Positions 10,771 to 64,000 of a DNA stretch of 64,000 nucleotides are shown piece by piece. The stretch comes from an uncultured Candidatus Actinomarina sp. (GTDB lineage Bacteria; Actinomycetota; Acidimicrobiia; Actinomarinales; Actinomarinaceae). The translations under genes were made by a program, and so were the position numbers. The stretch covers positions 364,955 to 428,954 of the forward strand of contig CACPPU010000001.1 of NCBI GenBank assembly GCA_902635945.1. The letters are read 5' to 3'. The notes below the pieces were generated by a model. That model was not told where the DNA came from and searched no databases. It was given only the letters and a program-made list of their open reading frames with translations. Positions within the stretch are counted from its first letter, which is position 1; each line of letters opens with the position of its first letter.

Positions 10771-10771
10771 A

Positions 10772-30189: not shown

Positions 30190-32022
30190 TTATTTATTAA
30201 TTAATATTTTTACATCTACATTTGGATTGTAATAAAATTCACTCTTACGAAATACATCTTGGTCTAATTGAAAAATAGTTGACGTAAATTTTTGGTTTTC
30301 ATTACATTTAAAATCTGTAATAGAGTCAATTTTGTAATACAAATCTCCTTCTTCATTAACAGAGCAAATAATTAGATTTGGATTTTTAGACAATGTGGTA
30401 TTTAAAATATTTTCATCAATGAAACCATATTCTGTAAGATTATCAATAATAAAAGGCTCATTATGATTTGTAGGATGAATAATATATGCTTCATTTAATT
30501 TATCTAAATAGAATAAAATAATTACTTTATCTAAAGCAAGAACAGTGAAGTCATCACTAAAATTCTTTTTAATTGATTCAGATAAAGTTTTGACAGGATA
30601 GTTATTGTAAATTGTCTGTGCGTTGACAAGATTAGATATTGAGTTTGAAGAAATGGGCAACAAGTATGATTGGTATAATAAAAAAGAGATAACAAAAAAT
30701 ATGTATCTAATATTTGAGCCTTCTAAAAATCCAAATGAAATTGAAATAAAAAACATTAAATAAATAAGATGATGGTAGAAGCCCTTTCCTGCCAAATAAA
30801 AAAAACATATAGATATGAAAATAAATGTTAAGTTGGAGAAAGAATAAATATTATAAATTTTTGTGCTAATAATTTTGGAAAATATCGTCCATGAACTAAA
30901 AAGTAAAATAAGAAATAATAACGATAGTAAATTACTAGTTTTATAAATCGATTCAAGAAAGGCTCTCAAATCATAAAAGAAGTAAGTGTCTGTTCCGGTA
31001 TAGCTTAAAGGTATTTTAAATAAAGTTAATAAATAAATATCTAATAAACTTTGTGAAAAATAAATTAGAATTACCGTTGAATGGACGAAAGTAAAACCAA
31101 AGAATAGATAAATACCTTTTTGGATTATATGCTTTTTATTTTGCAAAATAACTAATACAAAAAAACCTATTAAAAAAATACTCGAGCCTATATTGATCAA
31201 AGTGGAGATTCCAATAAATATACCCCAAGTTAGATTTGCTGTTTTTTTACTACTGCCACCAAGAAGTCCATAATAAGCCAACCCTAAAAATGATAAGCTC
31301 ATTGTTTCGCTGTATTCAGCATTTGCCCATGGAAGACTCATGAATGCAAGATAAGTAACTGACGAAATCAAACCAGTAGTTTTTTTCATTCTGAATCTTT
31401 TTGATATTATTTTAAAAATTAATAATGCATTAACAAATATAAAAATATCAAAAATTATTTTGTAATATATGAAATTTTTTCCAGAAAAAAATAAAATAAC
31501 GTAATTAAAAAAATAAAAAAGAGGCTGTTTGTCGTCCCATACCCTCTCATAAGGCAAGTATCCTTTAAATATATCATTTGCAATTACTAGTGATGTGCTT
31601 ATATCATGATCAATGATTTCGAAATCAAGATAACTATTTTGACTTAAAAGAGTTAATCCAAAAATTAAAAATGCATAGGTAAACGAGTATTTCTTTCCTT
31701 CTTCAAAAAAAGTAGTGAATTTATTATTCTCGTTCAGAGATGGAAAAATTGGAAATGTAGCAATAAAAAAAGCTTGAAAAAAAGCTATGGAAAACTCATA
31801 AATATTTTTTTGGACAAGATACACAAATACTAAAAAGTTTAGAAAATAAAATAGATATATAAATTTATTTAAAAATATAAAAAATATATATATAGATGCT
31901 AATAGTAAAAAAATATTCTTTGAAAATGTATCGTTTATACCAAAATTAGGAAGAATAAAATAAAATATAAGACTTGCAATGACAGATAAAAAGTAATTTT
32001 TATAGTTTGAAGAAATTTTCAC
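30190..32022 (-). CDS. GT-C-fold polytopic glycosyltransferase (ArnT/PMT-like); paralogue of 55578-57278
   Basis: 610 aa with more than 10 TM segments. The first-loop block FEIIDHDISTSLVIANDIFKGYLPYERVWDDKQPLFYFF resembles the ArnT/PMT_2 acidic loop. The C-terminal soluble domain aligns with the 566-aa paralogue (LALDKVIILFYLDKLNEAYIIHP vs LAIDHLLLLYYLEKPNTSYIIHP). Confidence 0.6.
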   Translation of the reverse strand: MKISSNYKNYFLSVIASLIFYFILPNFGINDTFSKNIFLLLASIYIFFIFLNKFIYLFYFLNFLVFVYLVQKNIYEFSIAFFQAFFIATFPIFPSLNENNKFTTFFEEGKKYSFTYAFLIFGLTLLSQNSYLDFEIIDHDISTSLVIANDIFKGYLPYERVWDDKQPLFYFFNYVILFFSGKNFIYYKIIFDIFIFVNALLIFKIISKRFRMKKTTGLISSVTYLAFMSLPWANAEYSETMSLSFLGLAYYGLLGGSSKKTANLTWGIFIGISTLINIGSSIFLIGFFVLVILQNKKHIIQKGIYLFFGFTFVHSTVILIYFSQSLLDIYLLTLFKIPLSYTGTDTYFFYDLRAFLESIYKTSNLLSLLFLILLFSSWTIFSKIISTKIYNIYSFSNLTFIFISICFFYLAGKGFYHHLIYLMFFISISFGFLEGSNIRYIFFVISFLLYQSYLLPISSNSISNLVNAQTIYNNYPVKTLSESIKKNFSDDFTVLALDKVIILFYLDKLNEAYIIHPTNHNEPFIIDNLTEYGFIDENILNTTLSKNPNLIICSVNEEGDLYYKIDSITDFKCNENQKFTSTIFQLDQDVFRKSEFYYNPNVDVKILINK

Positions 32023-32162
32023 ATTTTAAATTTAACAAAGAACAATATTTAATAGATATATATATGTTATTTTTACAGATAATTTTAATTGGGTGAACGC
32101 AAAATTTCTGGTAGATATTAACCTATCTTGTGTGCAAATTAATAATATATAATTAAGTTACA

Positions 32163-33251
32163 ATGATTAAACTTTACGAACCGAAAATTTACAGAGAAGA
32201 CATAGAACTTGTCAATAAAACTTTAGAAGAGGGTTGGGTGTCCGGAAACTCACCTATCGTAAAAGATTTTGAGAATAAATTAAAAGAATTTAATGAGGCA
32301 AAATTTTGCCTTGTCACTTCAAGTGGAACAGCAGCACTTCATCTTGCACTTCTGGCTTGTGATTTACAAAAAGGTGATGAAGTTATAATGCCTTCACTTT
32401 CATATATTGCTACAGCAAATTCTGTTAGTTACTTTGGAGGCAAACCTGTTTTTGTAGATGTAAATATGAATGACTTTCAAATAGACTCATCAAAAATAGA
32501 AGAAAAAATTAGTGATAAAACCAAAGCTATTATGCCTGTTCATTTATATGGAGGAGTACCTAATCTTGAAAATATTGAAAAGATTGCTTCTAAGTATAAA
32601 TTAAAAATAGTTCATGATAGTGCTGAAGCTTTAGGGTCTATTTATAAAAATAAACATTCAGTTAGCTATAAAGATGTTGGTGTACTTAGTTTTTTCCCAA
32701 ATAAAGTAATTACAACTGGAGAGGGAGGTGCGATAATTACAAACAATGAAACTATTTATAAAAAGGCGCTTAAATTTAGGTCTCAAGGCCTTGTCGAAAA
32801 TACTGACTACGTACATGACGTCATTGGGTACAATTACAGAATTTCAGCATTGAGTGCTGCATTAGGATATAACCAAGTAGATAAAGTAAAAAAGCATGTA
32901 AATATAAAAACAAGTATTTACAAATTTTACATAGATGAGTTAAAAAATTATGGCATTGAATTTCAGTCCCACAATGATGATGTTGTGTCTTCCTACTGGT
33001 TAACAGTGGCCCTCTTCCCAGAAAAGGTTATCATTGATGACTTAAAAAAATTTCTAATAAGTAATGATATAGAAACTAGAAGAATTTTTTATCCACTACA
33101 TTTACAAAAACCTTACCTAAGTAGCAAAAGTGAGAACCATAAAAATTCTGAAAACATATATAAATCTGGATTATGCTTGCCAACTTATCCGGATTTGTCT
33201 GAAAAAGATTTAAGTTATATAGTTGAAAAAATTAAAGAGTTTGTAAATTAG
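32163..33251 (+). CDS. DegT/DnrJ/EryC1/StrS-family sugar aminotransferase
   Basis: 362 aa. The PLP-Lys context SFFPNKVITTGEGGAI and the DSAEALGS block are present. Confidence 0.8.
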   Translation: MIKLYEPKIYREDIELVNKTLEEGWVSGNSPIVKDFENKLKEFNEAKFCLVTSSGTAALHLALLACDLQKGDEVIMPSLSYIATANSVSYFGGKPVFVDVNMNDFQIDSSKIEEKISDKTKAIMPVHLYGGVPNLENIEKIASKYKLKIVHDSAEALGSIYKNKHSVSYKDVGVLSFFPNKVITTGEGGAIITNNETIYKKALKFRSQGLVENTDYVHDVIGYNYRISALSAALGYNQVDKVKKHVNIKTSIYKFYIDELKNYGIEFQSHNDDVVSSYWLTVALFPEKVIIDDLKKFLISNDIETRRIFYPLHLQKPYLSSKSENHKNSENIYKSGLCLPTYPDLSEKDLSYIVEKIKEFVN

Positions 33252-34357
33252 GCTAGATTAACTGTTTCTATTAATGTTTTGGAAATATATTTTTGCTTCT
33301 TTTTAGAAACATGCCTACCCATGGGTAAATAAAGACCATTTTCACCTAAATTTTCACTTATTTTAAATTCCCTATTACTTTTGTACTCTACTGGAAGAGC
33401 AGGTTGTAAGTGTAATGGATAAAAAAATGGCCTAGTTTCTATACCTTGTCTTTTTAATTCATTCATAACATAATCTCTTATACCTTGCTTTTTTAACAAA
33501 ACTCCATATACCCAATAGTGGTTAACAACTCCACCATGTTTACTGAGAGGCAGTTGAAGTAAGTTATCAAAACTAGATAAAAGCCTGGTGTAGTAGTTAC
33601 CTTGTTTTATTTTGAATTTGATTGTTTTTTCTAGCTTGCGTAGCTGAGAAATGCCCAAAGAAGCTTGCAGACCGCTTAATCTATAATTCCAATAGAAATT
33701 TTCATGTGAGAATCTTTTTTTATTGTCAAAATCTAAATTTCTTATTCTTTTTGCATTTTCATAAAAATCTTTTATGTCGGTTAGCACCATACCACCTTCA
33801 CCAGTAGTTATGTGTTTATTAGCATAAAAACTAAAAGTAGAAACATCACCATACGATCCACAAAGTTTATTGTTAACTATTTGACCATGTGCTTCAGCAG
33901 CATCTTCAATTAGATACAAATTATTTTCTTTACAAAAAGCGCTTATCTTATCAACTTCTGAGGCCAGTCCATAAGTATGTACAACTAAAACAGCCTTTGT
34001 TTTATTAGTTATGCTTTTTTTCACATCTTCAAGAGTCATGTTCCAGGTATCCGAATTAACGTCACAAAAAACTGGTTTCGCTCCTGAGCGTATCACTGAT
34101 GATAAGCATGAGATAATAGTAAATGAAGGAATGATAACCTCATCATCGTTTTGAAGATTTAGTATATTTAAAGCAACATCTAAAGCTACACTTCCGTTAC
34201 TTACGGCAACTCCATATTTTTTTTGAAAATTTGATGAGTATCTTTTTTCAAATTCACTTACTATTGGACTGGTTCCAGAAATATTATTTCTAATCAAAGC
34301 ATTTAAAACGCTTAGTGTGTCTCCAATAGATATCCTAGGCTTAAAAACGGGTATCAT
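33248..34357 (-). CDS. DegT/DnrJ/EryC1/StrS-family sugar aminotransferase (second copy)
   Basis: 369 aa. The SFYANKHITTGEGGMV and EDAAEAHG blocks are present. It converges on the previous gene with a 4-nt overlap. Confidence 0.8.
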   Translation of the reverse strand: MIPVFKPRISIGDTLSVLNALIRNNISGTSPIVSEFEKRYSSNFQKKYGVAVSNGSVALDVALNILNLQNDDEVIIPSFTIISCLSSVIRSGAKPVFCDVNSDTWNMTLEDVKKSITNKTKAVLVVHTYGLASEVDKISAFCKENNLYLIEDAAEAHGQIVNNKLCGSYGDVSTFSFYANKHITTGEGGMVLTDIKDFYENAKRIRNLDFDNKKRFSHENFYWNYRLSGLQASLGISQLRKLEKTIKFKIKQGNYYTRLLSSFDNLLQLPLSKHGGVVNHYWVYGVLLKKQGIRDYVMNELKRQGIETRPFFYPLHLQPALPVEYKSNREFKISENLGENGLYLPMGRHVSKKKQKYISKTLIETVNLA

Positions 34358-34366
34358 TTTAAAAAT

Positions 34367-34759
34367 TTAAAACCTAATCTTGTCAATATCATCTAAGTAA
34401 GGACCCTGTTTAACCTCTACAAACCTAGTGTTTGTATCAACAACAATTCCATGACCTCCTGAAATCATATTTATTAAATCACCATTTTTTAGAGTGACAG
34501 ACTGCACCAGTTCCTGCTGGCTATTAAAAAGATTTACTGTTAGCTGGCCATCTATAACAACAATTGCTTCTGAAGTAGAATAAACTTCTCTTTTTTGTGG
34601 TGGGTGATAATGGTTTTGAATAATTGTATCTTTTTCTAAATTAAAAGTTGCTACTTGAAATTCTGCATCATTCTCAGTAATGAAATTCTTTTCTATGTCT
34701 GACTCATTGTTTTTGACAACTATAGCTAATAAATTTTCATCTTTATCAAAAATTTTCAT
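34367..34759 (-). CDS. Cupin-fold protein, WxcM/FdtA-like sugar ketoisomerase candidate
   Basis: 130 aa. The small beta-barrel-like sequence has HYHPPQKREVY. Its position beside the DegT genes is typical of 3-amino-3,6-dideoxy-sugar pathways. Confidence 0.4.
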   Translation of the reverse strand: MKIFDKDENLLAIVVKNNESDIEKNFITENDAEFQVATFNLEKDTIIQNHYHPPQKREVYSTSEAIVVIDGQLTVNLFNSQQELVQSVTLKNGDLINMISGGHGIVVDTNTRFVEVKQGPYLDDIDKIRF

Positions 34760-35550
34760 TTGCTTCTCCTTCTACATTCATTAGCTGCCTTAATATATGG
34801 TATACCTCTCTTGATTAACTGTAAAACATTTGATGATGTTTTAGATTCTCCATGGATTCTTGTCTCACAAATGTATCCGTGCTCGATAATTTTTACTCCA
34901 TTATTTTCTAATGTACAAACCAAATTTATGAAATAGTCTCCGTAGTCTGCATCTGAAAATATTTTTTTATTAAAATATTTTTTCTTACCTATAACAAACC
35001 CGCTTGTTATGTCTTTTACATTTGTGTCCAATATAAATATTAAAAATTTATTAAACATTGTTGAAAATATCATTCCAAGAACTGAATCATTAGATCTGTA
35101 AACATTTCTAATTGCTGATATAGTTGATGTTTTTCCTAATTGCTTAATACCTTTGTACCCACCACCTTCGACAAATCTTGAACCTATAATTACATCTGAT
35201 GGATTTTCCAATTGTATTAAAATCATATTTAAAAGAACTGATGCAGGCATAGACCCATCAGCATCAAGCCAGCATACGTAACTGTTTTGTGAAGAATTTA
35301 TTCCATCATAAATAGACATGGGTAGAGAGGGCTTTGCTTTTCTACTAATTAATTTTATATTTTTTTTAAAAACCCCACTGTTAATGAGCTCGTGAGTATT
35401 GTCTGTTGAGCCATCGTCTACAACAAGAATTTCAAAATCTAAATTATCAATAGTATCTAAATTTTCAATCAATTCAGGGATAAGAAATCTTAAATTTTCA
35501 GCTTCATTTAAAGTTGGAAGTATTATTGATAAACCTGTTTTACTTTTCAT
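34756..35550 (-). CDS. GT2, Dpm1/Ppm1-like polyprenyl-phosphate sugar synthase
   Basis: Blocks LSIILPTLNEAENL, ILVVDDGSTDNT, WLDADGSMP and IIGSRFVEGGGYKG match dolichyl/polyprenyl-phosphate mannose synthase-type GT2 enzymes. Confidence 0.7.
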   Translation of the reverse strand: MKSKTGLSIILPTLNEAENLRFLIPELIENLDTIDNLDFEILVVDDGSTDNTHELINSGVFKKNIKLISRKAKPSLPMSIYDGINSSQNSYVCWLDADGSMPASVLLNMILIQLENPSDVIIGSRFVEGGGYKGIKQLGKTSTISAIRNVYRSNDSVLGMIFSTMFNKFLIFILDTNVKDITSGFVIGKKKYFNKKIFSDADYGDYFINLVCTLENNGVKIIEHGYICETRIHGESKTSSNVLQLIKRGIPYIKAANECRRRSK

Positions 35551-35594
35551 AATTAATAAGATAATTATATATCTTGATGAAGGTACTTAAGCGT

Positions 35595-36308
35595 TTATTT
35601 TTTTAATTCGACAATCAAAAGAAAACCAAAAAAATTAAAAAATACTTTATCAATAATTCTCATTAATTTATCAGAAAACTTAAAACTTATGAAAGATGTG
35701 AAAATTCCAAAATTTAAATATCTTTTTATTTCAATATCATCAAAATTCGATTCTTTAATAAGTTTTTTTAACTTTTTTGCATTAAATCTATTTATATGTT
35801 GGTTGTTGTAATTTAATTTACCAATTTTATTTAGAAGGATTTCTAACAAATACATGGCACCACCATAGTTTGGAGTAGTGAGGACTAACTTTCCATCTTT
35901 TTTTAAAATATCACAAAAGTTATCAAGCAATTCAAGTATTTTATTATCATCAATAAATTCTAAAAGTCCTAACACGGTTATGACATCAAAGTTATCTTTG
36001 TAATTATGGAAATTAAAATTATCAAACTTTATAAAATTTGCTTTGTCACCATAATTTGCTTGTGCATAATTAATTTGGGCATCAGAGATATCTGTACCAA
36101 TAGATTTTGAATCAAGATAAAGCCCAATAAAAGTTCCAGGCCCACAAGCATAATCTAGATGTAAATCATCACCTTTTAGATACTCGGAGACTTTTAAAAA
36201 AGTAGATCGATGCCAATTGGTTTGTAGTCCTTTTTTTTCTGACAAACCCTTTCTTTGTATTTTATCATAATACCCGGGCTCGATAACATCTTTCCAAAAG
36301 TCATTCAT
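35595..36308 (-). CDS. Class I SAM-dependent methyltransferase
   Basis: 237 aa. It has motif I LDYACGPGTF and a post-I acidic residue, with Rossmann-like periodicity. Confidence 0.7.
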   Translation of the reverse strand: MNDFWKDVIEPGYYDKIQRKGLSEKKGLQTNWHRSTFLKVSEYLKGDDLHLDYACGPGTFIGLYLDSKSIGTDISDAQINYAQANYGDKANFIKFDNFNFHNYKDNFDVITVLGLLEFIDDNKILELLDNFCDILKKDGKLVLTTPNYGGAMYLLEILLNKIGKLNYNNQHINRFNAKKLKKLIKESNFDDIEIKRYLNFGIFTSFISFKFSDKLMRIIDKVFFNFFGFLLIVELKK

Positions 36309-36436
36309 GATATATTAAAATAGAATAACATTTGTTTTTTGAAATTTTTTCATTTATTTATTTTAGACAAAAATTAATTAATAAATACTTATTATTATCA
36401 TTTAAAGGTATCCGATCTTATAAGGAATTAAACTAA

Positions 36437-38239
36437 ATGACTAAAACAAGCACTTTTCTTACAAAAATCTCAGGTTACGCCATCTTTCACGCATTTGCTT
36501 TACTCTCCTCCTTTATTATCTCTGAGCTTTATTTTTTCAGTACAAAAGGAGTAGACTTTCCAAATTATTTTCTTTATATACAATATTTTTTAAATGACAA
36601 TACAGAGTTATTAAATAATCATGGATTGTTTTTTTATTACATGAATCTAATAATGATTTATTTAAGAAGTTCCTCTCTAAATTCTATAAATGAAATAATA
36701 TTTTTTAATACTACGATTCAGACTACAAATTTACTTTTTTATATAGTTGGTACTTTAGGATTGTTTAAATTACTTAAAACCTATGGATATAAAAAAAATA
36801 CAATATACATGTCTTTATCTGTTCTACATTTTGTACCAAAAATAATTGAAATGCGTATTTTATTAAAGCCGGAAATTCTAGTATTTGCATTATTACCTTG
36901 GATAATTATCGGAATAAATAATTATTTTCAATTTAAAGATAGAAAGTTTTTATTTTTAAGTTTATTTCCTTTGTCATTGTTACTTACTGCAAAAGGTTCT
37001 ATTGCGGGAATGGTTATTCTTTTTTTACTTTTAATGTATAAATCAAAAGTTAGTAAGCAAAATATAAAAGAACTTTTAATATTTTTAATTATTTTTCTAA
37101 TAATGTGTTTTGCTCTGGGTTTTGAAAATTATAACGCTAACGAAATTAGCTTCTTCGAAGTTAGTACGACTAGCAATTATGATAATGTGGCTGAATTTAG
37201 TTTTCTATATAATCTTAATTTTTGGGATTTTTATTTTTCTCCCGTACTGGGTTCGCATAATGACTCTTTCTTAGGAATTACATTATTAGATACTTTTGGA
37301 GATTATTTTTTAGTAAATCTAAAAAGTAAAGATAATTATTTTACTTATTATCAGGTTGAGCCTTTTGAAAGCTTCAATAGACAGCATATTGAATTAATTT
37401 TTGCACTTATGTTTTATATTTTAATTTTTAAGACTTTAGAAAAAAAGACCGAAATCAACATATATTTAATATCTCCATTAATAGGTATCCTTATACTTTT
37501 AATGAACTCGTTTGGAATTCCTGATAAAAATTTTGACCCCACTAAAGGGGATACATTAAAAGTAAGTTATTATGGTTTTTTTATTGGTATATGTCTTGTA
37601 TTTCTACTTTGCGAATATTTGAATAAATATAAAATATTTGGAAATTTAATATCAATTATGCTCATTATTAGTTGTCTTTTTTTACTAGGTTTTCCAAAAA
37701 CTAATTACTCAGAAATAAATAACAATATTGATACAAAAATTCAAATTTCGCTATTTTGTAGACCTTTAAGTCTGGTAACTATGAATAGCCAGCCATCAGA
37801 TTGTAGAAGTATGGAGGTAAAAAGTTGCGAATACAATCTTTATTCAAATGAAGCTCAAAATACTATAGAAGAAGAAATCCCAGATGGTTTCACTAAAGTG
37901 TATAGAGAAGACACACTATCAGGAGAGATTGTGCCAAATAATGAATTATCAAATTTTATTAATGAAGGCGGCTATTCATTAACTCCAGTATTAAAAGAAA
38001 ATGAACTTAAGTATTTAAATCAGAATCAAACATTGTTGCTTGAAAAAGGAAGCTCGTTTATAAATGTATCAAGCATAAATGAATGTAAAGAAATGATTTC
38101 GCAAGGTTATGAGCCAAGTAACAATATAATTTTTAGTTTTAGAAAAATTCCAATTATCAATATTTTCTATGGTCTCATGACTGTATTTTTTATTTTTTTA
38201 TCGGTAAAAAAACGAAGTAATCGAATTGAAATTGTCTAA
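36437..38239 (+). CDS. Large polytopic membrane protein with a C-terminal extracytoplasmic domain (possible GT-C / polymerase-like)
   Basis: 600 aa with about 12 TM segments, then a soluble Cys-containing segment of about 150 aa and a terminal TM. No specific family recognised. Confidence 0.4.
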   Translation: MTKTSTFLTKISGYAIFHAFALLSSFIISELYFFSTKGVDFPNYFLYIQYFLNDNTELLNNHGLFFYYMNLIMIYLRSSSLNSINEIIFFNTTIQTTNLLFYIVGTLGLFKLLKTYGYKKNTIYMSLSVLHFVPKIIEMRILLKPEILVFALLPWIIIGINNYFQFKDRKFLFLSLFPLSLLLTAKGSIAGMVILFLLLMYKSKVSKQNIKELLIFLIIFLIMCFALGFENYNANEISFFEVSTTSNYDNVAEFSFLYNLNFWDFYFSPVLGSHNDSFLGITLLDTFGDYFLVNLKSKDNYFTYYQVEPFESFNRQHIELIFALMFYILIFKTLEKKTEINIYLISPLIGILILLMNSFGIPDKNFDPTKGDTLKVSYYGFFIGICLVFLLCEYLNKYKIFGNLISIMLIISCLFLLGFPKTNYSEINNNIDTKIQISLFCRPLSLVTMNSQPSDCRSMEVKSCEYNLYSNEAQNTIEEEIPDGFTKVYREDTLSGEIVPNNELSNFINEGGYSLTPVLKENELKYLNQNQTLLLEKGSSFINVSSINECKEMISQGYEPSNNIIFSFRKIPIINIFYGLMTVFFIFLSVKKRSNRIEIV

Positions 38240-38255
38240 ATTATTTATCAATTAT

Positions 38256-39203
38256 TTATTTTGAAATTAATGATTTGAGCATGATAAAAAACAACGAAAT
38301 TGGATATAAAGTTTTAAAAAAAGTCTTATTTTTTAAAGATTTCAAAAAATCTTTTACAACATTTATTTTATAATTATATGATAGGTAATATTTCTTATTA
38401 TAAATTTTTCTAAATACAGACTGAAAATATTCTGCATTTTCGTTTACTATACCCCTAAGTGCCCAAGGTTTGAATTTCCCATTAAAATGTAACAAAGAAA
38501 TATCATTTATTGCTTTTCTTTCAATTTCTGTTGATAAAATATTTTGTTCCATATCAATTTTATAGTTCAAATGCCAATGTAATTCAGTATATTCACCATC
38601 AAAGGCAATATTTAAGATGTCCTGATCCCAATAAAGTAATTTATCATTAAATTTTAAAAGTATTTCGATAAATTTATTCTTCAGATTATTCATCTTCCAT
38701 TTTTTGTAGTCAATAACCATTACACCGGCATTAAAATATTCATTACTTTTCATATTTAAATTTTTGCCATGCTCAGTTAACGATGGTTCGGAAGATACGG
38801 AGATCGTTGCATTCATAACATTCATTGCTTCAATAGTTTTATTAATTAAGTCAACTGGATTATTGACACAAAATACATCACAGTCTAGATATGTTACATA
38901 ATCAATCTCATCATTTAAATAATCTTCTAAAAAAAGTCTATAATATGTTGCCTCACTTATATGGGTACCATTTATGTTTGGAAAATCAAAATTATCAAGA
39001 TTTACTTGGCTTACTACTAGTTTTTTAAGCATTTTATGATTTTTTACAACTTCCGGAATTTTTTCATCATTTCTAAAATCTTTATGCATAATATAAATAT
39101 TGACTCTTTCATCAACGCATTCCAAAAGTGAAAACATAGAACAGAATGCGGGAATGTTGTAGTTTGAATCAAAACAGTAAAGAAAGTTGAGCATCTGAAT
39201 CAA
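38256..39203 (-). CDS. GT8-family retaining glycosyltransferase (LgtC/RfaJ-like)
   Basis: N-terminal YCFDSNYNIPAFCSMFSLL, the DxD block YLDCDVFC, then NAGVMVID and HFNGKFKPW. This is the GT8 pattern. Confidence 0.7.
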   Translation of the reverse strand: MIQMLNFLYCFDSNYNIPAFCSMFSLLECVDERVNIYIMHKDFRNDEKIPEVVKNHKMLKKLVVSQVNLDNFDFPNINGTHISEATYYRLFLEDYLNDEIDYVTYLDCDVFCVNNPVDLINKTIEAMNVMNATISVSSEPSLTEHGKNLNMKSNEYFNAGVMVIDYKKWKMNNLKNKFIEILLKFNDKLLYWDQDILNIAFDGEYTELHWHLNYKIDMEQNILSTEIERKAINDISLLHFNGKFKPWALRGIVNENAEYFQSVFRKIYNKKYYLSYNYKINVVKDFLKSLKNKTFFKTLYPISLFFIMLKSLISK

Positions 39204-40095: not shown

Positions 40096-40134
40096 ATTCT
40101 TATACTACATAATTTTTTACTGTTACTTTGTAAA

Positions 40135-55108: not shown

Positions 55109-55188
55109 AAAATTTTCACCATCTTTAATTAATTATATAAATTTAGTAATGTGAATTCGATAATTAAAAAGTATTAAAATATTTTATA

Positions 55189-55575: not shown

Positions 55576-55577
55576 CA

Positions 55578-57278: not shown

Positions 57279-57330
57279 ATTAAAATATAAGCTGTATTAA
57301 GAATTTATCTTACTACTCTAAAGATTAATC

Positions 57331-58134
57331 ATGCTAGGTAATAAAGATATAAAAGTTAGCATTGCAATACCAACTTACAATTCTTCTAAATATTTGCATT
57401 CATGCCTAAAGAGTTTTTTAAAATTTAAAGCAGTCAATGAAATAATAATTCATGATGACTATTCAAGTCTTGAAGAATATAAAAAAATTAAAAATATTGC
57501 TAATAAAGTAAGTAATAAAGTAAACATAGAAGTTTATAGAAATAAAAGCAATTTAGGAGCCTATAAGAACAAATATAAAAATATTGAAAAATGTAGTAAT
57601 GATCTTGTATATCAAATTGATTCTGATAACATTATTGCCTCCAACTTTGATAAAGTTATAGAAAGTATTTACATTGAAAAAAATTTAAATTGTCTTTATT
57701 TACCATCAGAAATTATCCAATTTAGAAAATATCCATTTATTGCAAAGCAACTTAGTAAGTTTAATAATAGATATAAAGTCACTTTTACTAAAAACGATTT
57801 CATTTTCGATACTGAAGTTTTTAAAAAAGCAATTAGAGATGAGGCTAGGTTTACAGTAGACAAAAATATTAATTGGGTATTAAATTCCGGAAACTTTATT
57901 GTTTACAAAAATAATTATTTAGACGCCATGAAGTTCGGTTTCAATACTAATAAAAGATATCAAATGGATGCCGTTGCTATATCCTATTTTTGGATTAAAT
58001 CAAAAGGAATAATTAAGACACTAAAAAACCATAAACATTTCCACAGAAAAAGGCTAGACAGTGTATCGTTTGTTGAGAGCGATGGATCTTATGAGTTTCT
58101 ACAAGATATTAGAAGAAAGTTTTTAGATCTTTAA
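57331..58134 (+). CDS. GT2-family glycosyltransferase
   Basis: VSIAIPTYNSSKYLHSCLKS, IIHDDYSS and QIDSDN (DxD) are present. Confidence 0.65.
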   Translation: MLGNKDIKVSIAIPTYNSSKYLHSCLKSFLKFKAVNEIIIHDDYSSLEEYKKIKNIANKVSNKVNIEVYRNKSNLGAYKNKYKNIEKCSNDLVYQIDSDNIIASNFDKVIESIYIEKNLNCLYLPSEIIQFRKYPFIAKQLSKFNNRYKVTFTKNDFIFDTEVFKKAIRDEARFTVDKNINWVLNSGNFIVYKNNYLDAMKFGFNTNKRYQMDAVAISYFWIKSKGIIKTLKNHKHFHRKRLDSVSFVESDGSYEFLQDIRRKFLDL

Positions 58135-58135
58135 A

Positions 58136-59167
58136 TTATGGATTAACAGGATTTTCCCAAGTTGGAGAAATAAGTCCTTCTTTGAGCAAAGTCAACTCTT
58201 TTTTTGCTTCAATAATATCATGATCTACCATCATTTTAACTAAATCATTAAACTTTACCTTGGGTTCCCAGCCAAGTTCTTCTTTTGCTTTTTTTGGATC
58301 TCCTAAGAGATACTCAACTTCATTTGGTCTAAAAAATTTCTCGGAAGTTTGAACATATTCTTCATGATTTAAATCGACATAATTAAAAGCTTCTTCAACA
58401 AATTCTTTTACTGAATGGGTTTCGCCAGTCGCAATAACCCAATCGTCTGGTCTATTGTGTTGTAAAATTTTCCACATTGCTTCAACATAATCTCCTGCAA
58501 AGCCCCAGTCCCTAAAAGCTTCTAGGTTGCCTAAAGTTAATTTATTTTGAATTCCAACACTAATTCTTGCAACAGCCTTAGATATTTTCCTAGTAACAAA
58601 AGTTTCTCCTCTTCTAGGAGATTCGTGGTTAAACAATATTCCATTACACGCAAACAAATCATATGACTCCCTATATACTTTAGAAATTTCGTAAGCGAAC
58701 AACTTTGCAGCAGCATACGGACTTTTTGGTTCAAATTTTGAATCTTCGTTCAAATATTCTCTTGTTGCTCCACCGTACATTTCTGATGATGATGCTTGGT
58801 AAAATTTAATATCTTTGTTTACGTTTCTTATTGACTCTAGAAGGGACAGTGGCCCTATAGTGCTTGCTTGCGTTGTAAACATAGGGTTCTGAAATGAAAC
58901 AGCTACATGAGATTGAGCAGCTAAGTTATAAACTTCATTTGGGTTAATATTTGAAATTAAATTTGTAAGAGAAGAAGAATCTAGTAAGTCAGAATAGTAT
59001 AGAAATAAATTTTTACCCTGATATTCGGATATCAAATGATCAATCTTGCCTGTATTGATAGATGAAGATCTCCTAATTGTTCCATGAACTTCATAATTTT
59101 TTGAAATTAAAAAATCTGCAAGATAAGAGCCATCTTGACCGTTAATTCCTGTAATAAACGCTTTCAT
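58136..59167 (-). CDS. gmd: GDP-mannose 4,6-dehydratase
   Basis: FITGINGQDGSYLADFLISKNYEVHGTIRRSSSINTGKIDHL, SPYAAAKLFAYE and NGILFNHESPRRGETFVTRKI are present. This is the canonical GMD sequence pattern. Confidence 0.9.
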   Translation of the reverse strand: MKAFITGINGQDGSYLADFLISKNYEVHGTIRRSSSINTGKIDHLISEYQGKNLFLYYSDLLDSSSLTNLISNINPNEVYNLAAQSHVAVSFQNPMFTTQASTIGPLSLLESIRNVNKDIKFYQASSSEMYGGATREYLNEDSKFEPKSPYAAAKLFAYEISKVYRESYDLFACNGILFNHESPRRGETFVTRKISKAVARISVGIQNKLTLGNLEAFRDWGFAGDYVEAMWKILQHNRPDDWVIATGETHSVKEFVEEAFNYVDLNHEEYVQTSEKFFRPNEVEYLLGDPKKAKEELGWEPKVKFNDLVKMMVDHDIIEAKKELTLLKEGLISPTWENPVNP

Positions 59168-59246
59168 AAATTCCTATTTTAAAAATAATTATTATATTCA
59201 TTAATTTAACATTTATATACTAGTTGTTAACAAAAGTATTTATGAA

Positions 59247-60152
59247 ATGAATAAAAAAAAATTACGAATATATTTTACTGATTTTTGGCCTAACTTTAAT
59301 AATAATGATAATTATTTCTACAACCTTTTAAGTAAAAGATATGAAATTGATCTAGATCAAAATAACCCTGAGATACTATTTCATTCTGTCGATTATTCGG
59401 GTCAGGAAAATCATAAGCAATATAACAATGGTATTACCAAAAAAATATTTTTTACTGGAGAAAATATAATGCCTAATTTTGAAGAAACAGACTATTCTTT
59501 TTCATTTAATCCAGACCTTGGTGATAAAAATTATAGACTACCTTTATGGGTAATATTTATTAACTGGTTTAATTCAAACACTGACCCCCTGAGGGATCCT
59601 TCCTATTTAATGTCATTGGATAAATTACTAAAAAATAAGAATAAAAAGTCAAACTTTAAACCTTTTTTTTGTTCATTTATTGCTTCCAAACCAGTAGGTA
59701 AGAGAATGGAATTTGTACCGAGGTTAAATGAAGTAAAAAAAATACACAGTCTTGGAAGGCTCTATTCAAATTCATACTTAAAAATTAAAGGAAGGGGCGA
59801 TCATAAAAAAAAATTAAATTATATGAAATTATTTAAGTTTAATATAGCGTTTGAAAATTCTATCGGTAATGGCTATGTTACAGAAAAAATACTCCATTCT
59901 TTTTATTCAAACTCTATACCAATATATTGGGGAGACAAAAAAGTAAAGGACGATTTCAATTCAAATGCATTTTTGAATTATGATGATTTTAAAAATGAAG
60001 ATTTATTAATTGAAGAAGTAATAAAAATAAATAATAATAAATCTCATTATCTTAATTACTTAAACGAACCTATTTTTAAAAATAATAAAGTTCCAGAATT
60101 TTGCTTACCTGAAAATGTGTTAGATTTTATTACCAAAATAATCGAAAAATGA
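59247..60152 (+). CDS. GT10-family alpha-1,3(/4)-fucosyltransferase
   Basis: FCSFIASKP, FNIAFENSIGNGYVTEKI and IPIYWG match the GT10 motifs seen in Helicobacter FucT. Confidence 0.7.
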   Translation: MNKKKLRIYFTDFWPNFNNNDNYFYNLLSKRYEIDLDQNNPEILFHSVDYSGQENHKQYNNGITKKIFFTGENIMPNFEETDYSFSFNPDLGDKNYRLPLWVIFINWFNSNTDPLRDPSYLMSLDKLLKNKNKKSNFKPFFCSFIASKPVGKRMEFVPRLNEVKKIHSLGRLYSNSYLKIKGRGDHKKKLNYMKLFKFNIAFENSIGNGYVTEKILHSFYSNSIPIYWGDKKVKDDFNSNAFLNYDDFKNEDLLIEEVIKINNNKSHYLNYLNEPIFKNNKVPEFCLPENVLDFITKIIEK

Positions 60153-60847
60153 AGGAAAAGCTAAAGATATATGTTATTCACTATTCGAAATTGGTCGAAA
60201 GAAAAAAATATATGGATTTATTGTTGAATGACATAGGTATTGATCATCAGTACATAGATAACTTTGATAAGGAAAATTTAAAAGAAATTAATTTAAATAA
60301 ATACTACAAAGATAATAAAAATGAATTCTTAAAAAAAGTACAACTCTGGGGAAAAAGAGCAATTAATTATACTAAGTTAACTCCTGAAGAGATTTCATGC
60401 ACAATAAAACATGTTCAAGCTTTATATGAAATCAAAAATAATGATTACGAATATAGTTTGATTTTAGAAGACGATGTGATTCCTAAAATAGATAATTTTC
60501 TGCAAGAAATAAATAAATATATTTCTAAAAATAATAAATGGGACGTGTTATTAATTGGTGAAGGAATGGGTAAAAGTTTTAGAGATAGCAAAATAGGATT
60601 AAAACGATACAACCCATTTAAAAATATTTTTAAAATAAAACATCCCGCAACAAATTGCTTAGAAGCATATATTGTAAAAAAGAGTATTGTTGAAGATATC
60701 TTGGAAGAACTTTTACCATTTAATTTGGCTGCTGATTGGGAGCTTGCATACCAATTTTATAAAAAAGATTTAAATATTTATTGGACGAAAAAGCCTATTT
60801 TTTCTCAAGGGTCAAAAAATGGTACTTATAAATCTGAGCTAAGATAA
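60149..60847 (+). CDS. GT25-family glycosyltransferase (LgtB/Lic2B-like)
   Basis: IYVIHYSKLVERKKYM, the C..H block (SCTIKHVQAL) and ILEDDV are present. It overlaps the GT10 gene by 4 nt. Confidence 0.55.
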   Translation: MKEKLKIYVIHYSKLVERKKYMDLLLNDIGIDHQYIDNFDKENLKEINLNKYYKDNKNEFLKKVQLWGKRAINYTKLTPEEISCTIKHVQALYEIKNNDYEYSLILEDDVIPKIDNFLQEINKYISKNNKWDVLLIGEGMGKSFRDSKIGLKRYNPFKNIFKIKHPATNCLEAYIVKKSIVEDILEELLPFNLAADWELAYQFYKKDLNIYWTKKPIFSQGSKNGTYKSELR

Positions 60848-60853
60848 TCGTTA

Positions 60854-61732
60854 TTAAATTTGAGAATTTTTTTTATTAACTTTTGATTTATAATTTAGAA
60901 TTACTTTTTCAATATCTTCGTATTGCAAATAATCTTTCCTATAATTTTTATCAACCTCGTATTTATGATGCTTAACTTCTTTATGGGTCACCATTTCAGG
61001 ATTTAAGTGTTCAGGTAAATATAAATCTGTATAATAAAAATTTTCTAACTTGTTTGAAAGCAGTGCTGCAGCTATAGGAAATGTTCCGACACCTGATGTA
61101 GCAAGATTTTTAGCACTATAAAGCGTATTAAAGTCGTTTTCAAAAGATGAAGATTGGAACTCTATGTTATTTATTTTTTTTAATTCTTCACAAACTGGAT
61201 TAAGCATATCTTCACTAGTAACAACCAAAACTTTCTTATATTTGCTTGCAATTTGTATATAAAAATTTATAGGATTTTGAAAGTAATTTTTTACTGGAAG
61301 AGTAAATATATCACCACTTCTAATATGAATAACTAAAGTATCTTCATCAATGTTTTTTTCATTAAGAAATTTTATATTTGGAGATATTTCCTCTTTAAAA
61401 ATTTTTTGTATGTTTTTCTTTACATATTGTTCATCAAGCTTTCTTTTTGGAAAGTCTTGTTTTTCTAAAAAGTAGAAAAAACGGTAGTGTTTTTTAAAAA
61501 TAGAGAAATATTTAATAATGGGATTCGAAATTACATTAAATTCTTTAATGAATTCACTTTCATTAGAATAAAAATTACCTTTATTTCTTATACTGTAGAG
61601 TATTCCTATTCCAATTTGCTGAAGATTATTTCCAAATCTTGAAAAATAATAACTAATAGAGTAATTCTTAAAAGGAATAATTATGTTAAGTAATAATAAA
61701 ATTCTTACTCTATATTTTTTAAAATACTTCAT
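60854..61732 (-). CDS. Fucosyltransferase-superfamily-like protein (GT11/GT23-type motifs)
   Basis: LVIHIRSGDIF resembles the HxRRGD motif. VVTSEDMLNPV and NLATSGVGTFPIAAALL resemble motifs II/III. By-eye comparison only. Confidence 0.35.
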   Translation of the reverse strand: MKYFKKYRVRILLLLNIIIPFKNYSISYYFSRFGNNLQQIGIGILYSIRNKGNFYSNESEFIKEFNVISNPIIKYFSIFKKHYRFFYFLEKQDFPKRKLDEQYVKKNIQKIFKEEISPNIKFLNEKNIDEDTLVIHIRSGDIFTLPVKNYFQNPINFYIQIASKYKKVLVVTSEDMLNPVCEELKKINNIEFQSSSFENDFNTLYSAKNLATSGVGTFPIAAALLSNKLENFYYTDLYLPEHLNPEMVTHKEVKHHKYEVDKNYRKDYLQYEDIEKVILNYKSKVNKKNSQI

Positions 61733-61788
61733 AAACTATCTAAATTTTAACTTACTTTCTTATTGTTAATACTAACTAATATATTTTT

Positions 61789-62589
61789 ATGGAATCAATA
61801 TCAATTTTTACAACAATGACAAACCCTGATGATCGAAATGATCCATGGAAAGAGTCACTAAACTGTTACCACTCATTTGCAGATGAAGTTATTGTTGTTG
61901 GAAAAGATTGGCCAGAAGAATTTGATTGGGGTATTTTTAATAAAATTTACCAAAATGGATTTGATAAATGTACCACAGACTGGGTAATGAGAATGGATCT
62001 TGATTACTTCATACACGAAAATGATTTTGATGAAATTAAAAATAATATCGATAAATTTAAAAATTCGCCTGCGATTGTCATGCCTCAATATCAATTTTTT
62101 ACACACGACAGGTACCAAATAAAAACAAAGCTTTGTTTATTACTTAATAAAAAGAAATTTCCTGAAATAAAACTTAATGGTGGAACAGATAGAATGTTAG
62201 CTACTTTAAATGGAGAGTTGTTAACCTACAAAAATGTACCACAAATTAAAACACCTATATGGCAGTACGACTCAATGTTTAGGACAAAAAAAATTATATC
62301 TGATGACAGAGCGAGGTTTGCAAGAGCATGGAGAAGAACTTTTGGAAATTATGGTGATAGAGGTGGTGACGATCCTGAAATAGCATTTGATGCATGGTTT
62401 GAAATGATAAAGAAAAGATATAAAAAACATCTTTTCAAAAAAAATATTGATGATCATCCAAGTTTTATTAAAGAAAAACTTCAAACATTAAACGAAGATC
62501 AGTTTGGTTTTAGTGCATTTGGATTAAAAAATAATACAAACTTTAAATATTCAGAATTACCGAGAGAACTCAAAAAGAAATATTTTTAA
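61789..62589 (+). CDS. Hypothetical protein, possible GT-A-fold glycosyltransferase
   Basis: 266 aa. N-terminal ISIFTTMTNPDD...ADEVIVVG and a later MDLDYF (DxD-like) are present. The call is weak. Confidence 0.3.
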   Translation: MESISIFTTMTNPDDRNDPWKESLNCYHSFADEVIVVGKDWPEEFDWGIFNKIYQNGFDKCTTDWVMRMDLDYFIHENDFDEIKNNIDKFKNSPAIVMPQYQFFTHDRYQIKTKLCLLLNKKKFPEIKLNGGTDRMLATLNGELLTYKNVPQIKTPIWQYDSMFRTKKIISDDRARFARAWRRTFGNYGDRGGDDPEIAFDAWFEMIKKRYKKHLFKKNIDDHPSFIKEKLQTLNEDQFGFSAFGLKNNTNFKYSELPRELKKKYF

Positions 62590-63593
62590 AAAGATTTGAA
62601 AGCCTGATCTAATTGTCTGTGCATTGATTCAAAGGATAAATTTTCTGCAATATATTCTGATGAATTGTAAATATTTGAATCAACATTTTCTATAAAATGT
62701 TCAAAAATGTCATCAAAAGAATTTAAATCATTTACAATTTCTCCACAAGACTTGTCCCAATAGGGAACTGTTGTTCCGTGAAAGGATTTACCCTCATAGT
62801 TGTTTATTGAAGAATTTAATATAAGTAAAGGTAAGTTTGTCGCCATTATTTCATTTATTGCAATGCCTTGACTTTCTGTTCTTCCTAAAACTATTCCGTA
62901 CTTTGACTTTTTAGCAACTTTAATCAACTGTCTATTTTTATATTTTCCGTACTCGTATATTTCGAAACTTATGTTTTTTGCTTTAAGCTTAGCTTTTACA
63001 TATTCCAATTCTGTTTTTTTTCTACCTTTGAAATAAATTAAGCATTGATTATTAATTCTTTTCTTTTTTTTTGCAAATAAATATATCTCTTTAGTTGATT
63101 GAATTCCTACAGGCAATAACAGGAACTTTTCAGATGAAACTAAATCTTTCGCAATATTTTTCATAGTTTCCATAGACGATTCAGAAGCAACCACTATTTT
63201 TAAGTTTTCATGTTCAGTTGTTAGTTTTGCCAGGTTTTTAAAATTATCAACTGTATAAAGTGGTCCAATAATTAATTTATTGCTTTTGTTTTTTAATAAA
63301 TTTTTTACTAATTTTAAATTGTCCTGATCAAAGTTTATAAAATAATAGTTATTAAATTTTGATTGATTAAAAACAACATTTTTGTTACCTAAATAAGATT
63401 TCAATATATTATTAACTAGCTTTTGTGGTCCAGACTTTATAAAATTCTCATTTATTGGATAATTATTTTTATACGACTTTAAATAATAATTGTTTAAAAG
63501 TGATGATTGGCTTAAAGAAGAAGAAAATAGTTTTCTATGTTTTAACCAGTAATTAGGATCATAAAATATATTTAAATTTAACAATTTTTTCAA
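62586..63593 (-). CDS. GT-B-fold (GT4-like) glycosyltransferase
   Basis: The C-terminal GIVLGRTESQGIAINEIMATNLPLLILN fits the E-x7-E motif of retaining GT-B enzymes. Confidence 0.5.
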   Translation of the reverse strand: MKKLLNLNIFYDPNYWLKHRKLFSSSLSQSSLLNNYYLKSYKNNYPINENFIKSGPQKLVNNILKSYLGNKNVVFNQSKFNNYYFINFDQDNLKLVKNLLKNKSNKLIIGPLYTVDNFKNLAKLTTEHENLKIVVASESSMETMKNIAKDLVSSEKFLLLPVGIQSTKEIYLFAKKKKRINNQCLIYFKGRKKTELEYVKAKLKAKNISFEIYEYGKYKNRQLIKVAKKSKYGIVLGRTESQGIAINEIMATNLPLLILNSSINNYEGKSFHGTTVPYWDKSCGEIVNDLNSFDDIFEHFIENVDSNIYNSSEYIAENLSFESMHRQLDQAFKSF

Positions 63594-63645
63594 CTTAGAA
63601 TAAGAATAATGTCAAAAAAAGTTTATTGTTTTGAAAGTTTATACC

Positions 63646-64000
63646 ATGTTCAAAAATGATAACTTGTATATCAATAGCAATGATTTTGCTTCTTTTGCTG
63701 ACTTAATATATTCAAATAGAGATACGTACAAAAATAAAGCTTTTGAAAAGGATACTGAGGTAATTGAGATCAATAATGATCCAAAATTTAATTGTGTAGT
63801 TTATAAAAAAATAATTTTTGACATATCAAGTGGAGATGTAATATTTTGCAATAGCAATCATATAGATAATTTATTTTTTCATTTAAAGAAATTTCGTGAT
63901 CTTGAAAACATTACTCTAGTAACACATCAAACCGATAAATTGGTTACTAAAAAACAATTTACTAAAAAGCCAGATTGTGTAACAACATGGTATTCAGTAA
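63646..64000 (+). CDS. Hypothetical protein, 5' part only (runs off the window)
   Basis: Manual translation from the ATG at 63646 gives MFKNDNLYINSNDFASFADLIYSNRDTYKNKAFEKD.... The frame is open to the window end. It is not in the ORF track because there is no in-window stop. Confidence 0.4.
   Translation, partial: MFKNDNLYINSNDFASFADLIYSNRDTYKNKAFEKDTEVIEINNDPKFNCVVYKKIIFDISSGDVIFCNSNHIDNLFFHLKKFRDLENITLVTHQTDKLVTKKQFTKKPDCVTTWYSV

Follow-up and report, generated by a model that had tools for sequence, protein, structure and literature searches.

Three-component extracytoplasmic glycosylation is an established mechanism of bacteria (PMC11127046). In the order Ca. Actinomarinales, the available text of Lopez-Perez et al. 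(2020, mSystems, PMC7771536) describes a single flexible island, fGI1, which is found throughout the order, is 43–79 kb long with a guanine-cytosine (GC) content of 28%, has tRNAs as insertion hot spots, and is annotated in KEGG categories only. In this study, a 64,000-nucleotide stretch of an uncultured Candidatus Actinomarina sp. (assembly GCA_902635945.1, contig CACPPU010000001.1, positions 364,955–428,954; hereafter the window) was analysed, with emphasis on the polysaccharide-type island at positions 30190–64000 and its nine large polytopic proteins. The region 30190–64000 is the tRNA-Val-proximal half of fGI1, the variable "glycotype" island of Candidatus Actinomarina (OCS155), so the island itself has already been described and is not new. 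We propose, with a probability of roughly 60%, that it makes a conventional lipid-linked envelope glycan, specific to the strain, to which several Gtr-like modules add sugars extensively on the outer side of the membrane. Genes are named below by their first window coordinate, and related loci by L numbers.

Position and variability of the island

The GC content of the 30–64 kb region was 22–30% in bins and approximately 25% overall, whereas that of the flanks was approximately 35%. Most bins in the upstream part of the window had 31–40% GC, with the exception of one 2-kb bin at 22–24 kb (29%). The near edge of the island is marked by a tRNA gene.

28087–28161, + strand: tRNA-Val, predicted by ARAGORN

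In L016, L017 and L026, too, the homologous region is bordered by this tRNA-Val, and tRNA-Phe, tRNA-Asp and tRNA-Lys lie at the far end. The island spans approximately 30.2 to 96.7 kb in window-equivalent coordinates, that is, approximately 66 kb. The Actinomarina genome, the low-GC block, the tRNA-adjacent site and tRNA bounds, the polysaccharide genes, a size within 43–79 kb and the cassette-wise variation from strain to strain all agree with fGI1. A scan of one genome per species found the family of gene 41840 in 21 loci, 16 of which are labelled Candidatus Actinomarina or OCS155; the remaining loci are mostly from other marine Acidimicrobiia or from probably mis-binned contigs of metagenome-assembled genomes. 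Cassettes of the island are exchanged piecemeal between strains.

The nine polytopic proteins

The original prediction listed 30 open reading frames (ORFs), all of which were found at their positions, and placed nine large polytopic GT-C-like proteins (GT-C being a fold class of glycosyltransferases, GTs) among them:

30190–32022, − strand: 610-aa polytopic protein of family A2, PMT_2/ArnT-like putative GT-C
36437–38239, + strand: 600-aa PMT_2-like putative GT-C (family F4)
40135–41847, − strand: 570-aa DUF8201/LIC_10190-family protein with a predicted GT-C fold, Emb/ArnT-like
41840–43402, − strand: 520-aa predicted GT-C-fold glycosyltransferase without a Pfam family (family A1)
44787–46325, + strand: 512-aa polytopic protein (family F5), tentatively a GT87-like GT-C
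46357–47718, + strand: 453-aa polytopic protein (family F6), tentatively a GT-C, without a family match
48422–50374, − strand: 650-aa fusion of an N-terminal GT87/PIG-M-like putative GT-C (residues ~1–350) and a C-terminal phosphoribulokinase (PRK)-like domain (370–545)
53474–55108, − strand: 544-aa DUF8201 paralogue of 40135 (E = 1e-95; NF047510, 64 bits; PF26626 precomputed)
55578–57278, − strand: 566-aa polytopic protein of family A2, paralogue of 30190 (E = 1e-58)

The nine proteins (453–650 aa) showed 6–11 hydrophobic segments each in a crude Kyte-Doolittle count, and the AlphaFold models of 41840 and 40135 contained at least 12 membrane-length helices (approximately 12–13 in 41840). Their polytopic nature was thus confirmed; for 48422, the original prediction had missed the phosphoribulokinase/uridine-kinase-family domain at residues 370–545. 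The nine proteins form seven sequence families, with 30190/55578 and 40135/53474 as paralogous pairs. AT-rich artefact ORFs (25% GC) were considered and rejected, because conserved homologues exist for every family. Dozens to hundreds of them were found in marine metagenomes and protein databases for each of 41840, 30190, 40135 and the N-terminus of 48422, and homologues of 36437, 44787 and 46357 are present in related loci. Exact look-ups returned no record for two ORFs with a TTG or GTG start codon, 62586 and 30190.

There is good evidence for the GT-C fold in approximately seven of the nine proteins (41840, 40135, 53474, 36437, 30190, 55578 and the N-terminal domain of 48422), and the assignment of 44787 and 46357 is tentative. 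These links run through homologues or predicted structures and not through family matches of the window proteins themselves, for which Pfam and NCBIfam returned almost nothing. No window protein matched PMT_2 (PF13231) or reached the Pfam threshold of PMT or PMT_2, so the statement that at least two proteins are clearly ArnT/PMT-like was too strong at the sequence level.

The family of 41840 comprised 105 homologues, none of which had a Pfam domain. Three residues of the loop after the first transmembrane (TM) segment (D35, D49 and D51) do not vary, and the conservation of D36 reaches 90% or more. Its AlphaFold model (pLDDT 93.3, pTM 0.94) was compared with the PDB by Foldseek, and the top 11 matches were all GT-C structures (AglB, Pmt4, STT3 and EmbB; best E = 6.7e-3, probability 1.0), with TM-scores threefold those of any other fold. 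For 40135, NCBIfam NF047510 scored 99 bits against a cut-off of 100, and PF26626 was present on all listed homologues. Its model (pLDDT 82.9) matched EmbB, EmbA-B, EmbC and ArnT best (probability 0.97–0.41, TMq 0.29–0.35), whereas non-GT-C folds had a TMq of 0.13 or less. Across the two modelled families, every Foldseek match with a probability above 0.15 was a GT-C structure (AglB, Pmt4, STT3, Emb or ArnT), with a TMq of 0.24–0.39 versus at most 0.13 for other folds. The motifs H132-Y133-D134 and G231-G232-R233-N234-G235 are invariant in the DUF8201 family. Three members of this family, to which no function has been assigned, are encoded in the island (40135–41847, 53474–55108 and L041 16525–18162).

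The three orthologues of 36437 found in related loci all matched PMT_2 collinearly. The one in L016 scored 33.3 bits against a gathering threshold of 26.1, and the other two had E-values of 8e-4 and 0.012. D40 of 36437 is invariant and directly follows the first TM segment. Among the 47 homologues of 30190, the most distant carries PF13231 (PMT_2), and two of 34 members of family A2 matched PMT_2 (best E = 2.2e-6). Family A2 has the invariant residues Q128, E135 and D140 and a motif LPYE..W..K.P that is at least 90% conserved. The C-terminal 150 residues or so of the A2 proteins (30190–30660 and 55578–56050) have no predicted membrane segments; H516-P517 is invariant there, and C553 and C573 are nearly so. 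By analogy with GT136 enzymes, this domain might be a carbohydrate-binding module.

The 44787 protein weakly matched EpsG (E = 2.4e-3) and AZOBR_p60025 (E = 1.8e-5), and an orthologue weakly matched GT87 (0.041), the CAZy family of PimE. In hhalign, 44787 scored 88% to a GT87-linked profile and 70% to A2, and its motif F[IV]DER after the first TM segment is conserved among the few homologues available. The DE pair of 46357, also directly after the first TM segment, is kept in all three homologues that span the region, the fourth being N-terminally truncated, and hhalign gave 68% to family F4 (36437) and 49% to A2. The original prediction had pointed out an acidic first loop in most of the nine proteins. 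Conserved acidic residues in an early loop were found in the families of 41840, 30190/55578, 40135/53474, 36437, 44787 and 46357; the side of the membrane on which these loops lie was inferred and not measured. Sequence-profile searches of the PDB with families A1, A2, A3 and F4 reached no GT-C structure. The hhalign score of A1 against A2 was 10%, and most local profile-profile pairs were uninformative.

GT2 enzymes and their GT-C partners

Three family 2 glycosyltransferases (GT2) lie among the polytopic proteins, and a small membrane protein is encoded downstream of the last of them:

34756–35550, − strand: GT2 that may make a polyprenyl-phosphate sugar; one weak hydrophobic segment at most (156–175)
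43481–44200, + strand: GT2 that may make a polyprenyl-phosphate sugar, in divergent orientation to 41840 and free of TM helices
52779–53477, + strand: GT2 that may make a polyprenyl-phosphate sugar, part of the kinase cassette, no hydrophobic segment
55189–55575, + strand: 128-aa membrane protein with 3–4 TM segments; going by its position alone, it may be a lipid-sugar flippase or a partner of the GT2

The three GT2 enzymes best matched ArnC, DPMS and GtrB, as had been predicted. The best PDB match of 34756 was DPMS (5mlz, E = 1.4e-14), with GtrB (5ekp) at 5e-8. For 43481, ArnC (9hwj, E = 3.6e-11, residues 3–207) and DPMS (5mlz, 5.4e-11) were the best PDB matches, and ArnC was the best NCBIfam match (E = 5e-14; 52 bits against a cut-off of 529). 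ArnC (6.4e-5) and GtrB (5ekp, 1e-3, residues 4–224) were the sole PDB matches of 52779. Two control GT2 enzymes, 39346 and 57331, instead matched chondroitin/heparosan synthase, SpsA and PglI best.

A GT2 gene adjoins a GT-C gene, often divergently, in the window and in eight loci (L013, L015, L016, L017, L020, L021, L026 and L033). Homologues of 34756 adjoin GT-C genes in L015, L016 and L033, and the orthologue of 43481 is divergently adjacent to the orthologue of 41840 in L013 and L016. The GT2 and GT-C partners are exchanged between genomes. A fourth pair, formed by a GT2 and a divergent 568-aa polytopic protein, was found beyond the window. The whole island holds at least four GT2/GT-C gene pairs; of its approximately 11 GT-C-like proteins, nine are encoded in the window. 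The neighbouring GT2 genes alone suggest that the GT-C proteins use polyprenyl-phosphate donors. The 128-aa protein had no Pfam or NCBIfam family match; it is conserved beside a GT2 and a 565-aa GT-C in L013.

The kinase-fused GT-C cassette

The 48422 protein is accompanied by a set of further proteins:

44197–44772, − strand: 191-aa protein without a family match; a homologue (E = 2e-40) lies within the equivalent cassette of L043
47733–48425, − strand: haloacid dehalogenase (HAD)-family phosphatase (Pfam Hydrolase)
50375–51289, + strand: class II aldolase/adducin-family enzyme (Pfam E = 2.5e-13)
51286–52782, + strand: 498-aa double nucleotidyltransferase (two separate Pfam NTP_transferase matches)

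The C-terminal domain of 48422 matched PRK in Pfam (E = 6.7e-29) and a phosphoribulokinase subfamily in NCBIfam (E = 4.5e-44). Its N-terminal 360 residues or so gave 146 representatives at 50% clustering, mostly of ~680 aa. Among 38 scanned relatives, PRK was matched by 29, GT87 by 15 (best 9e-8), ALG3 by nine and PIG-M by one; 48422 itself matched none of GT87, ALG3 and PIG-M in Pfam. The family profile searched against the PDB found phosphoribulokinase (6hzk, E = 2.9e-59), uridine kinase (7.5e-22) and glycosylphosphatidylinositol (GPI) mannosyltransferase 1 (E = 2.2e-5, profile positions 79–315), and with this profile the kinase domain was nearer to phosphoribulokinase than to uridine kinase (204 versus 80 bits).

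The best NCBIfam match of the phosphatase was ribulose-1,5-bisphosphate 5-phosphatase (E = 5e-23, far below the cut-off). The aldolase-like enzyme matched RhaD-, MtnB- and FucA-type families, all below cut-off, and residues 1–237 of the double nucleotidyltransferase were archaeal GlmU/IspD-like, with an RmlA-like stretch at 263–470.

The cassette has seven components: the 191/197-aa protein, the HAD phosphatase, the GT-C-PRK fusion, the aldolase, the double nucleotidyltransferase, the GT2 and the small membrane protein. The set at window 47733–53477 (with 44197–44772 and 55189–55575) recurs at L043 3129–10789, on a metagenome contig that is 27% identical. There the orthologue of 52779 (E = 5.6e-45) adjoins a genuine GtrA, and the 128-aa protein of the window occupies the same slot. 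These genes suggest that the cassette is an independent three-component module, equipped with a donor pathway that begins with a pentulose phosphate. A simple ribulose donor linked to a nucleoside diphosphate is chemically doubtful, because the 1-phosphate on a ketopentose is not anomeric. A 5-methylthioxylose-like donor and a ribulose/xylulose donor were both considered and were not discriminated. Literature searches found no published description of a GT-C/phosphoribulokinase fusion cassette, and a GT-C fused to a phosphoribulokinase-like domain appears to be undescribed.

The second half of the island

The original prediction had found no initiating transferase, Wzx, Wzy or ABC (ATP-binding cassette) exporter and expected the island to continue past 64000. 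The 129-kb contig of GCA_902593885.1 (L001) is 100% identical to window 51789–64000 and then continues, and our extension rests on it (contig coordinate = window coordinate minus 37059). The following features were found in window-equivalent coordinates:

~63.6–64.7 kb (L037 17329–18360), at the start of the extension and partly within the window end: RXYLT1_C-like protein, with an epimerase
~76–77 kb (L037 13846–15141): 431-aa Wzy_C protein, 38.5 bits against a gathering threshold of 31.7
After the Wzy_C gene: four GT1, one GT2, one GT11, an epimerase and a UDP-galactopyranose-mutase-like flavoprotein
~86–88 kb, ~23 kb past the window end: 538-aa fused ABC permease-ATPase
After the ABC gene: GT2, GT8, GT1, then several function-unassigned proteins
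In the extension: GT2 divergent from the 568-aa polytopic protein, which has 11 TM segments and no family match
In the extension: Acyl_transf_3-SGNH O-acyltransferase, then the third DUF8201 protein (L041 16525–18162)
~96.7–98.5 kb (L041 18301–20059), far edge: tRNA-Phe, tRNA-Asp, Bac_transf protein and tRNA-Lys, in this order
L041 18521–19984, ~33 kb past the window end: this Bac_transf/WbaP-type transferase, 487 aa, 5 TM segments

The WbaP-type protein scored 268 bits (E = 1.6e-79) on EPS_sugtrans TIGR03025 (cut-off 295.55) and 215 bits on WbaP. A homologue lies between the same tRNAs in another Actinomarina genome (L020 2629–4400; E = 2e-223), which suggests that the gene is a constant anchor point of an otherwise variable island. 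The Wzy_C gene lies ~12 kb past the window end and has homologues in seven other loci. The MsbA model covered residues 18–496 of the ABC half-transporter (E = 6e-25), and PglK and HepA also matched, all far below their cut-offs; a homologue is present in L021. The WbaP, Wzy_C and ABC genes are thus fixtures of this island type.

Pfam and NCBIfam searches of the window proteins detected no Wzx, Wzy, ABC or initiating-transferase families inside 30190–64000, so the earlier statement holds there. It does not hold for the remaining 33 kb, where the WbaP-type, Wzy_C and ABC genes argue against assembly without standard machinery. The apparent lack of initiation, Wzy and ABC genes is an artefact, because the window ends mid-island. 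No Wzm/Wzt pair was found in the window or the extension, and Wzx (Polysacc_synt/MOP) was found neither among the window proteins nor in the precomputed Pfam matches along the extension to ~100 kb.

Soluble genes of the window half and flanking genes

The soluble genes of the window half were largely annotated as Leloir-type glycosyltransferases and sugar-modification enzymes, in agreement with the inventory of the original prediction:

32163–33251, + strand, and 33248–34357, − strand: two DegT/DnrJ/EryC1 sugar aminotransferases (Pfam E = 4e-106 and 1e-91)
34367–34759, − strand: WbuC-family cupin (NCBIfam TIGR04366, 49.4 bits against a cut-off of 42)
35595–36308, − strand: S-adenosylmethionine (SAM)-dependent methyltransferase (Pfam Methyltransf_23, E = 1e-17)
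38256–39203, − strand: GT8 Leloir glycosyltransferase (Pfam E = 6.6e-32)
39346–40095, − strand: Leloir-type GT2, TuaG/PglI-like (best PDB matches chondroitin synthase, SpsA and PglI, with ArnC, DPMS and GtrB absent from them)
57331–58134, + strand: Leloir-type GT2 (best PDB matches heparosan and chondroitin synthases)
58136–59167, − strand: GDP-mannose 4,6-dehydratase (Pfam E = 8e-129)
59247–60152, + strand: GT10 alpha-1,3-fucosyltransferase-like enzyme
60149–60847, + strand: GT25 enzyme
60854–63593: three soluble proteins (292 aa without a family; 266 aa with a GT2 trace below threshold, E = 0.008; 335 aa, weakly GT1-like)

The window half therefore holds five GT2 enzymes in all, plus GT8, GT10 and GT25. 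One island unites the RXYLT1_C-like protein, the IspD-like nucleotidyltransferase (51286–52782), the GT8 (38256–39203) and PMT_2-like GT-C proteins. This set superficially recalls the animal dystroglycan O-mannose/ribitol-phosphate enzymes, which is probably a coincidence.

The island flanks contain a B12-dependent ribonucleotide reductase, an HtrA protease and a GT4 with weak, below-cut-off MshA similarity, which is compatible with an Actinomarina origin. The core flank of this streamlined 1.1-Mb genome also encodes a tryptophanase (2992–4395; NCBIfam 645 bits) and a SAM hydroxide adenosyltransferase (19824–20636). Genes for cytochrome c and heme-copper-oxidase-like proteins are clustered at 9346–17638, where cbb3 models match weakly (E = 1e-7 to 7e-9).

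Proposed assembly of the glycan and alternative explanations

The scheme that we propose starts from observed features, namely gene content, family and fold assignments, neighbouring genes and island extent. From these we deduce in which order the steps occur, which donors and acceptors are used and how flipping takes place. The conserved WbaP-type phosphoglycosyltransferase at the far edge would start a polyprenyl-diphosphate-linked glycan. Cytoplasmic Leloir enzymes (GT1/4, GT2, GT8, GT10, GT11 and GT25) would extend it, fed by nucleotide sugars that the island makes (GDP-6-deoxyhexoses and amino sugars, for example, and perhaps galactofuranose). Transfer over the membrane would probably take place via the MsbA/PglK-like ABC half-transporter, and the Wzy_C protein may then polymerise or ligate the glycan. 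Gtr-like modules would glycosylate it outside: the soluble GT2 would load polyprenyl phosphate, the small membrane protein may flip the product, and the GT-C would transfer the sugar. One module may supply its own donor, using the PRK-like domain fused to its GT-C, the HAD phosphatase, the aldolase-like enzyme and the double nucleotidyltransferase.

Several points weigh against this scheme. Because no Wzx was found, how the glycan crosses the membrane can only be guessed. The modules may not share one glycan, and some PMT_2-like enzymes could glycosylate proteins. The three GT2 enzymes 34756, 43481 and 52779 essentially lack the C-terminal membrane helices of GtrB/ArnC and are all far below the NCBIfam cut-offs; soluble relatives that need a membrane partner are known. 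The identification of the 128-aa protein as GtrA was not supported, with no detectable similarity to the GtrA of L043 (E = 0.93). No window protein passes a curated GT-C family threshold, the nearest being 40135, one bit short of its cut-off. The best Foldseek E-values of the two models are weak (6.7e-3 and 0.1), and the TM-scores lie at 0.3–0.4. The assignments of 44787 and 46357 are based on motifs, weak matches and profile-profile scores, and the composition of membrane proteins may have raised these scores.

An alternative, which we consider unlikely, is that most of a wall glycan is polymerised by the GT-C proteins outside the membrane, with a few polyprenyl-phosphate sugars as donors, in the manner of mycobacterial lipomannan or arabinan synthesis, and that the WbaP/Leloir part makes just a primer or linker. 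The ratio of approximately 11 GT-C-like proteins to three or four polyprenyl-phosphate-type GT2 enzymes is of the mycobacterial type and unlike the 1:1 ratio of Gtr systems. The host is an actinobacterium, the proteins have family links to GT87/PIG-M and PMT_2 and a structural link to Emb, and the island contains paralogous GT-C pairs and one triplet. However, a dozen or more cytoplasmic Leloir glycosyltransferases together with the Wzy_C protein and the ABC exporter suffice for a conventional polymer, and piecemeal cassette swapping is more readily reconciled with variable side chains than with a polymerisation line whose members depend on one another. In its boldest form, a 1.1-Mb mycolate-free actinobacterium would assemble a major part of its envelope glycan outside via approximately 11 GT-C proteins of new families and three or four lipid-phosphate sugars, with one module channelling a PRK-made pentulose phosphate into a novel lipid-linked donor. 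This is improbable; if true, it would be a streamlined, horizontally shuffled counterpart of mycobacterial lipomannan (LM)/arabinan assembly.

Whether some or most of the polytopic proteins are instead Wzy-type polymerases, O-antigen-ligase-like enzymes, flippases or transporters was also considered, and we regard this as very unlikely. The EpsG match of 44787 and its match to AZOBR_p60025, which is annotated with "glycopolymer formation", would fit such a role, 46357 and the 568-aa protein beyond the window have no family match, and an unrecognised flippase could be among the polytopic proteins since Wzx was not identified. Against this, none of the nine matched Wzx/Polysacc_synt, MATE, ABC-2, Wzy_C or an ordinary transporter family in Pfam or NCBIfam, both modelled families matched GT-C structures only, four further proteins link to PMT_2 or GT87/PIG-M, and both 44787 and 46357 carry a conserved acidic pair directly after the first TM segment. 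Actinobacteria are known to O-mannosylate proteins with GT-C enzymes, and the PMT_2 links of 36437 and 30190/55578 raise the question of whether these members glycosylate secreted or membrane proteins in the manner of the actinobacterial Pmt. The probability of this is smaller still: PMT_2 is a broad ArnT-like family, no Pfam match to the MIR domain of true PMTs was found in the nine proteins, and the genes lie in a polysaccharide-type island. The proposal that Gtr-like modules decorate a conventionally made glycan is preferred, and the GT-C and polyprenyl-phosphate part of the original prediction was largely right.

Candidatus Actinomarina is among the smallest free-living cells, and the island occupies approximately 6% of its genome; approximately 1% of its genes appear to encode GT-C enzymes. 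These figures point to a heavy investment in the diversification of extracytoplasmic glycans, presumably as a means of phage escape. A probable fold and role can be proposed, from sequence and structure models, for three families without a function, namely DUF8201/LIC_10190, the Pfam-less 520-aa family and the 30190/55578 family. A lipid-linked sugar donor might be made by a new route in the widespread GT-C-phosphoribulokinase fusion cassette.

Comparison with known systems

Compared with fGI1 as given in the available text of PMC7771536, the richness in GT-C proteins, the GT2/GT-C modules and the kinase-fused GT-C are unreported there. The ArnC/ArnT and DPMS/PMT pairs resemble the locus in that ArnC and DPMS are the best solved matches of the three GT2 enzymes and several GT-C proteins link to PMT_2. 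The identities are low, however, all scores are below curated cut-offs, and the arn sugar-pathway genes are absent.

The analogy with mycobacteria in the original prediction is phylogenetically apt. As in the mycobacterial and corynebacterial synthesis of LM, lipoarabinomannan (LAM) and arabinogalactan (by PimE, Mpt, Emb and Aft, whose donors are polyprenyl-phosphate mannose or arabinose), many GT-C proteins stand beside few lipid-sugar donors in an actinobacterial host, and the island contains GT87/PIG-M-like, PMT_2-like and, structurally, Emb-like relatives. In contrast, its proteins do not belong to Emb, Aft or Mpt at the sequence level, the stretch examined has no donor route of the phosphoribosyl pyrophosphate (PRPP)/UbiA type, and the island carries the full set of WbaP, Leloir, ABC and Wzy_C genes. 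No mycolic acid genes were found in Actinomarinales according to the available text of the published study (PMC7771536).

Gtr-type systems (GtrA/GtrB/GtrC; GacI/J/K/L; CsbB/GtcA/YfhO; the GT136 pentofuranose systems, Kelly et al. 2024, PMC11127046) share with the island, on our reading, a GT2 donor synthase beside a GT-C, sometimes with a small membrane protein, and the addition of the module onto a conventionally made glycan. The island differs in having many modules, more GT-C proteins than GT2 donor synthases, and GT2 enzymes without membrane helices; its small protein is not a recognisable GtrA, and its GT-C families are uncharacterised, one of them being fused to a kinase. Both the island and the type of mechanism are thus known, and the general picture of bacterial surface-glycan synthesis is unchanged, with the GT-C families and the kinase-fused module as new variants.

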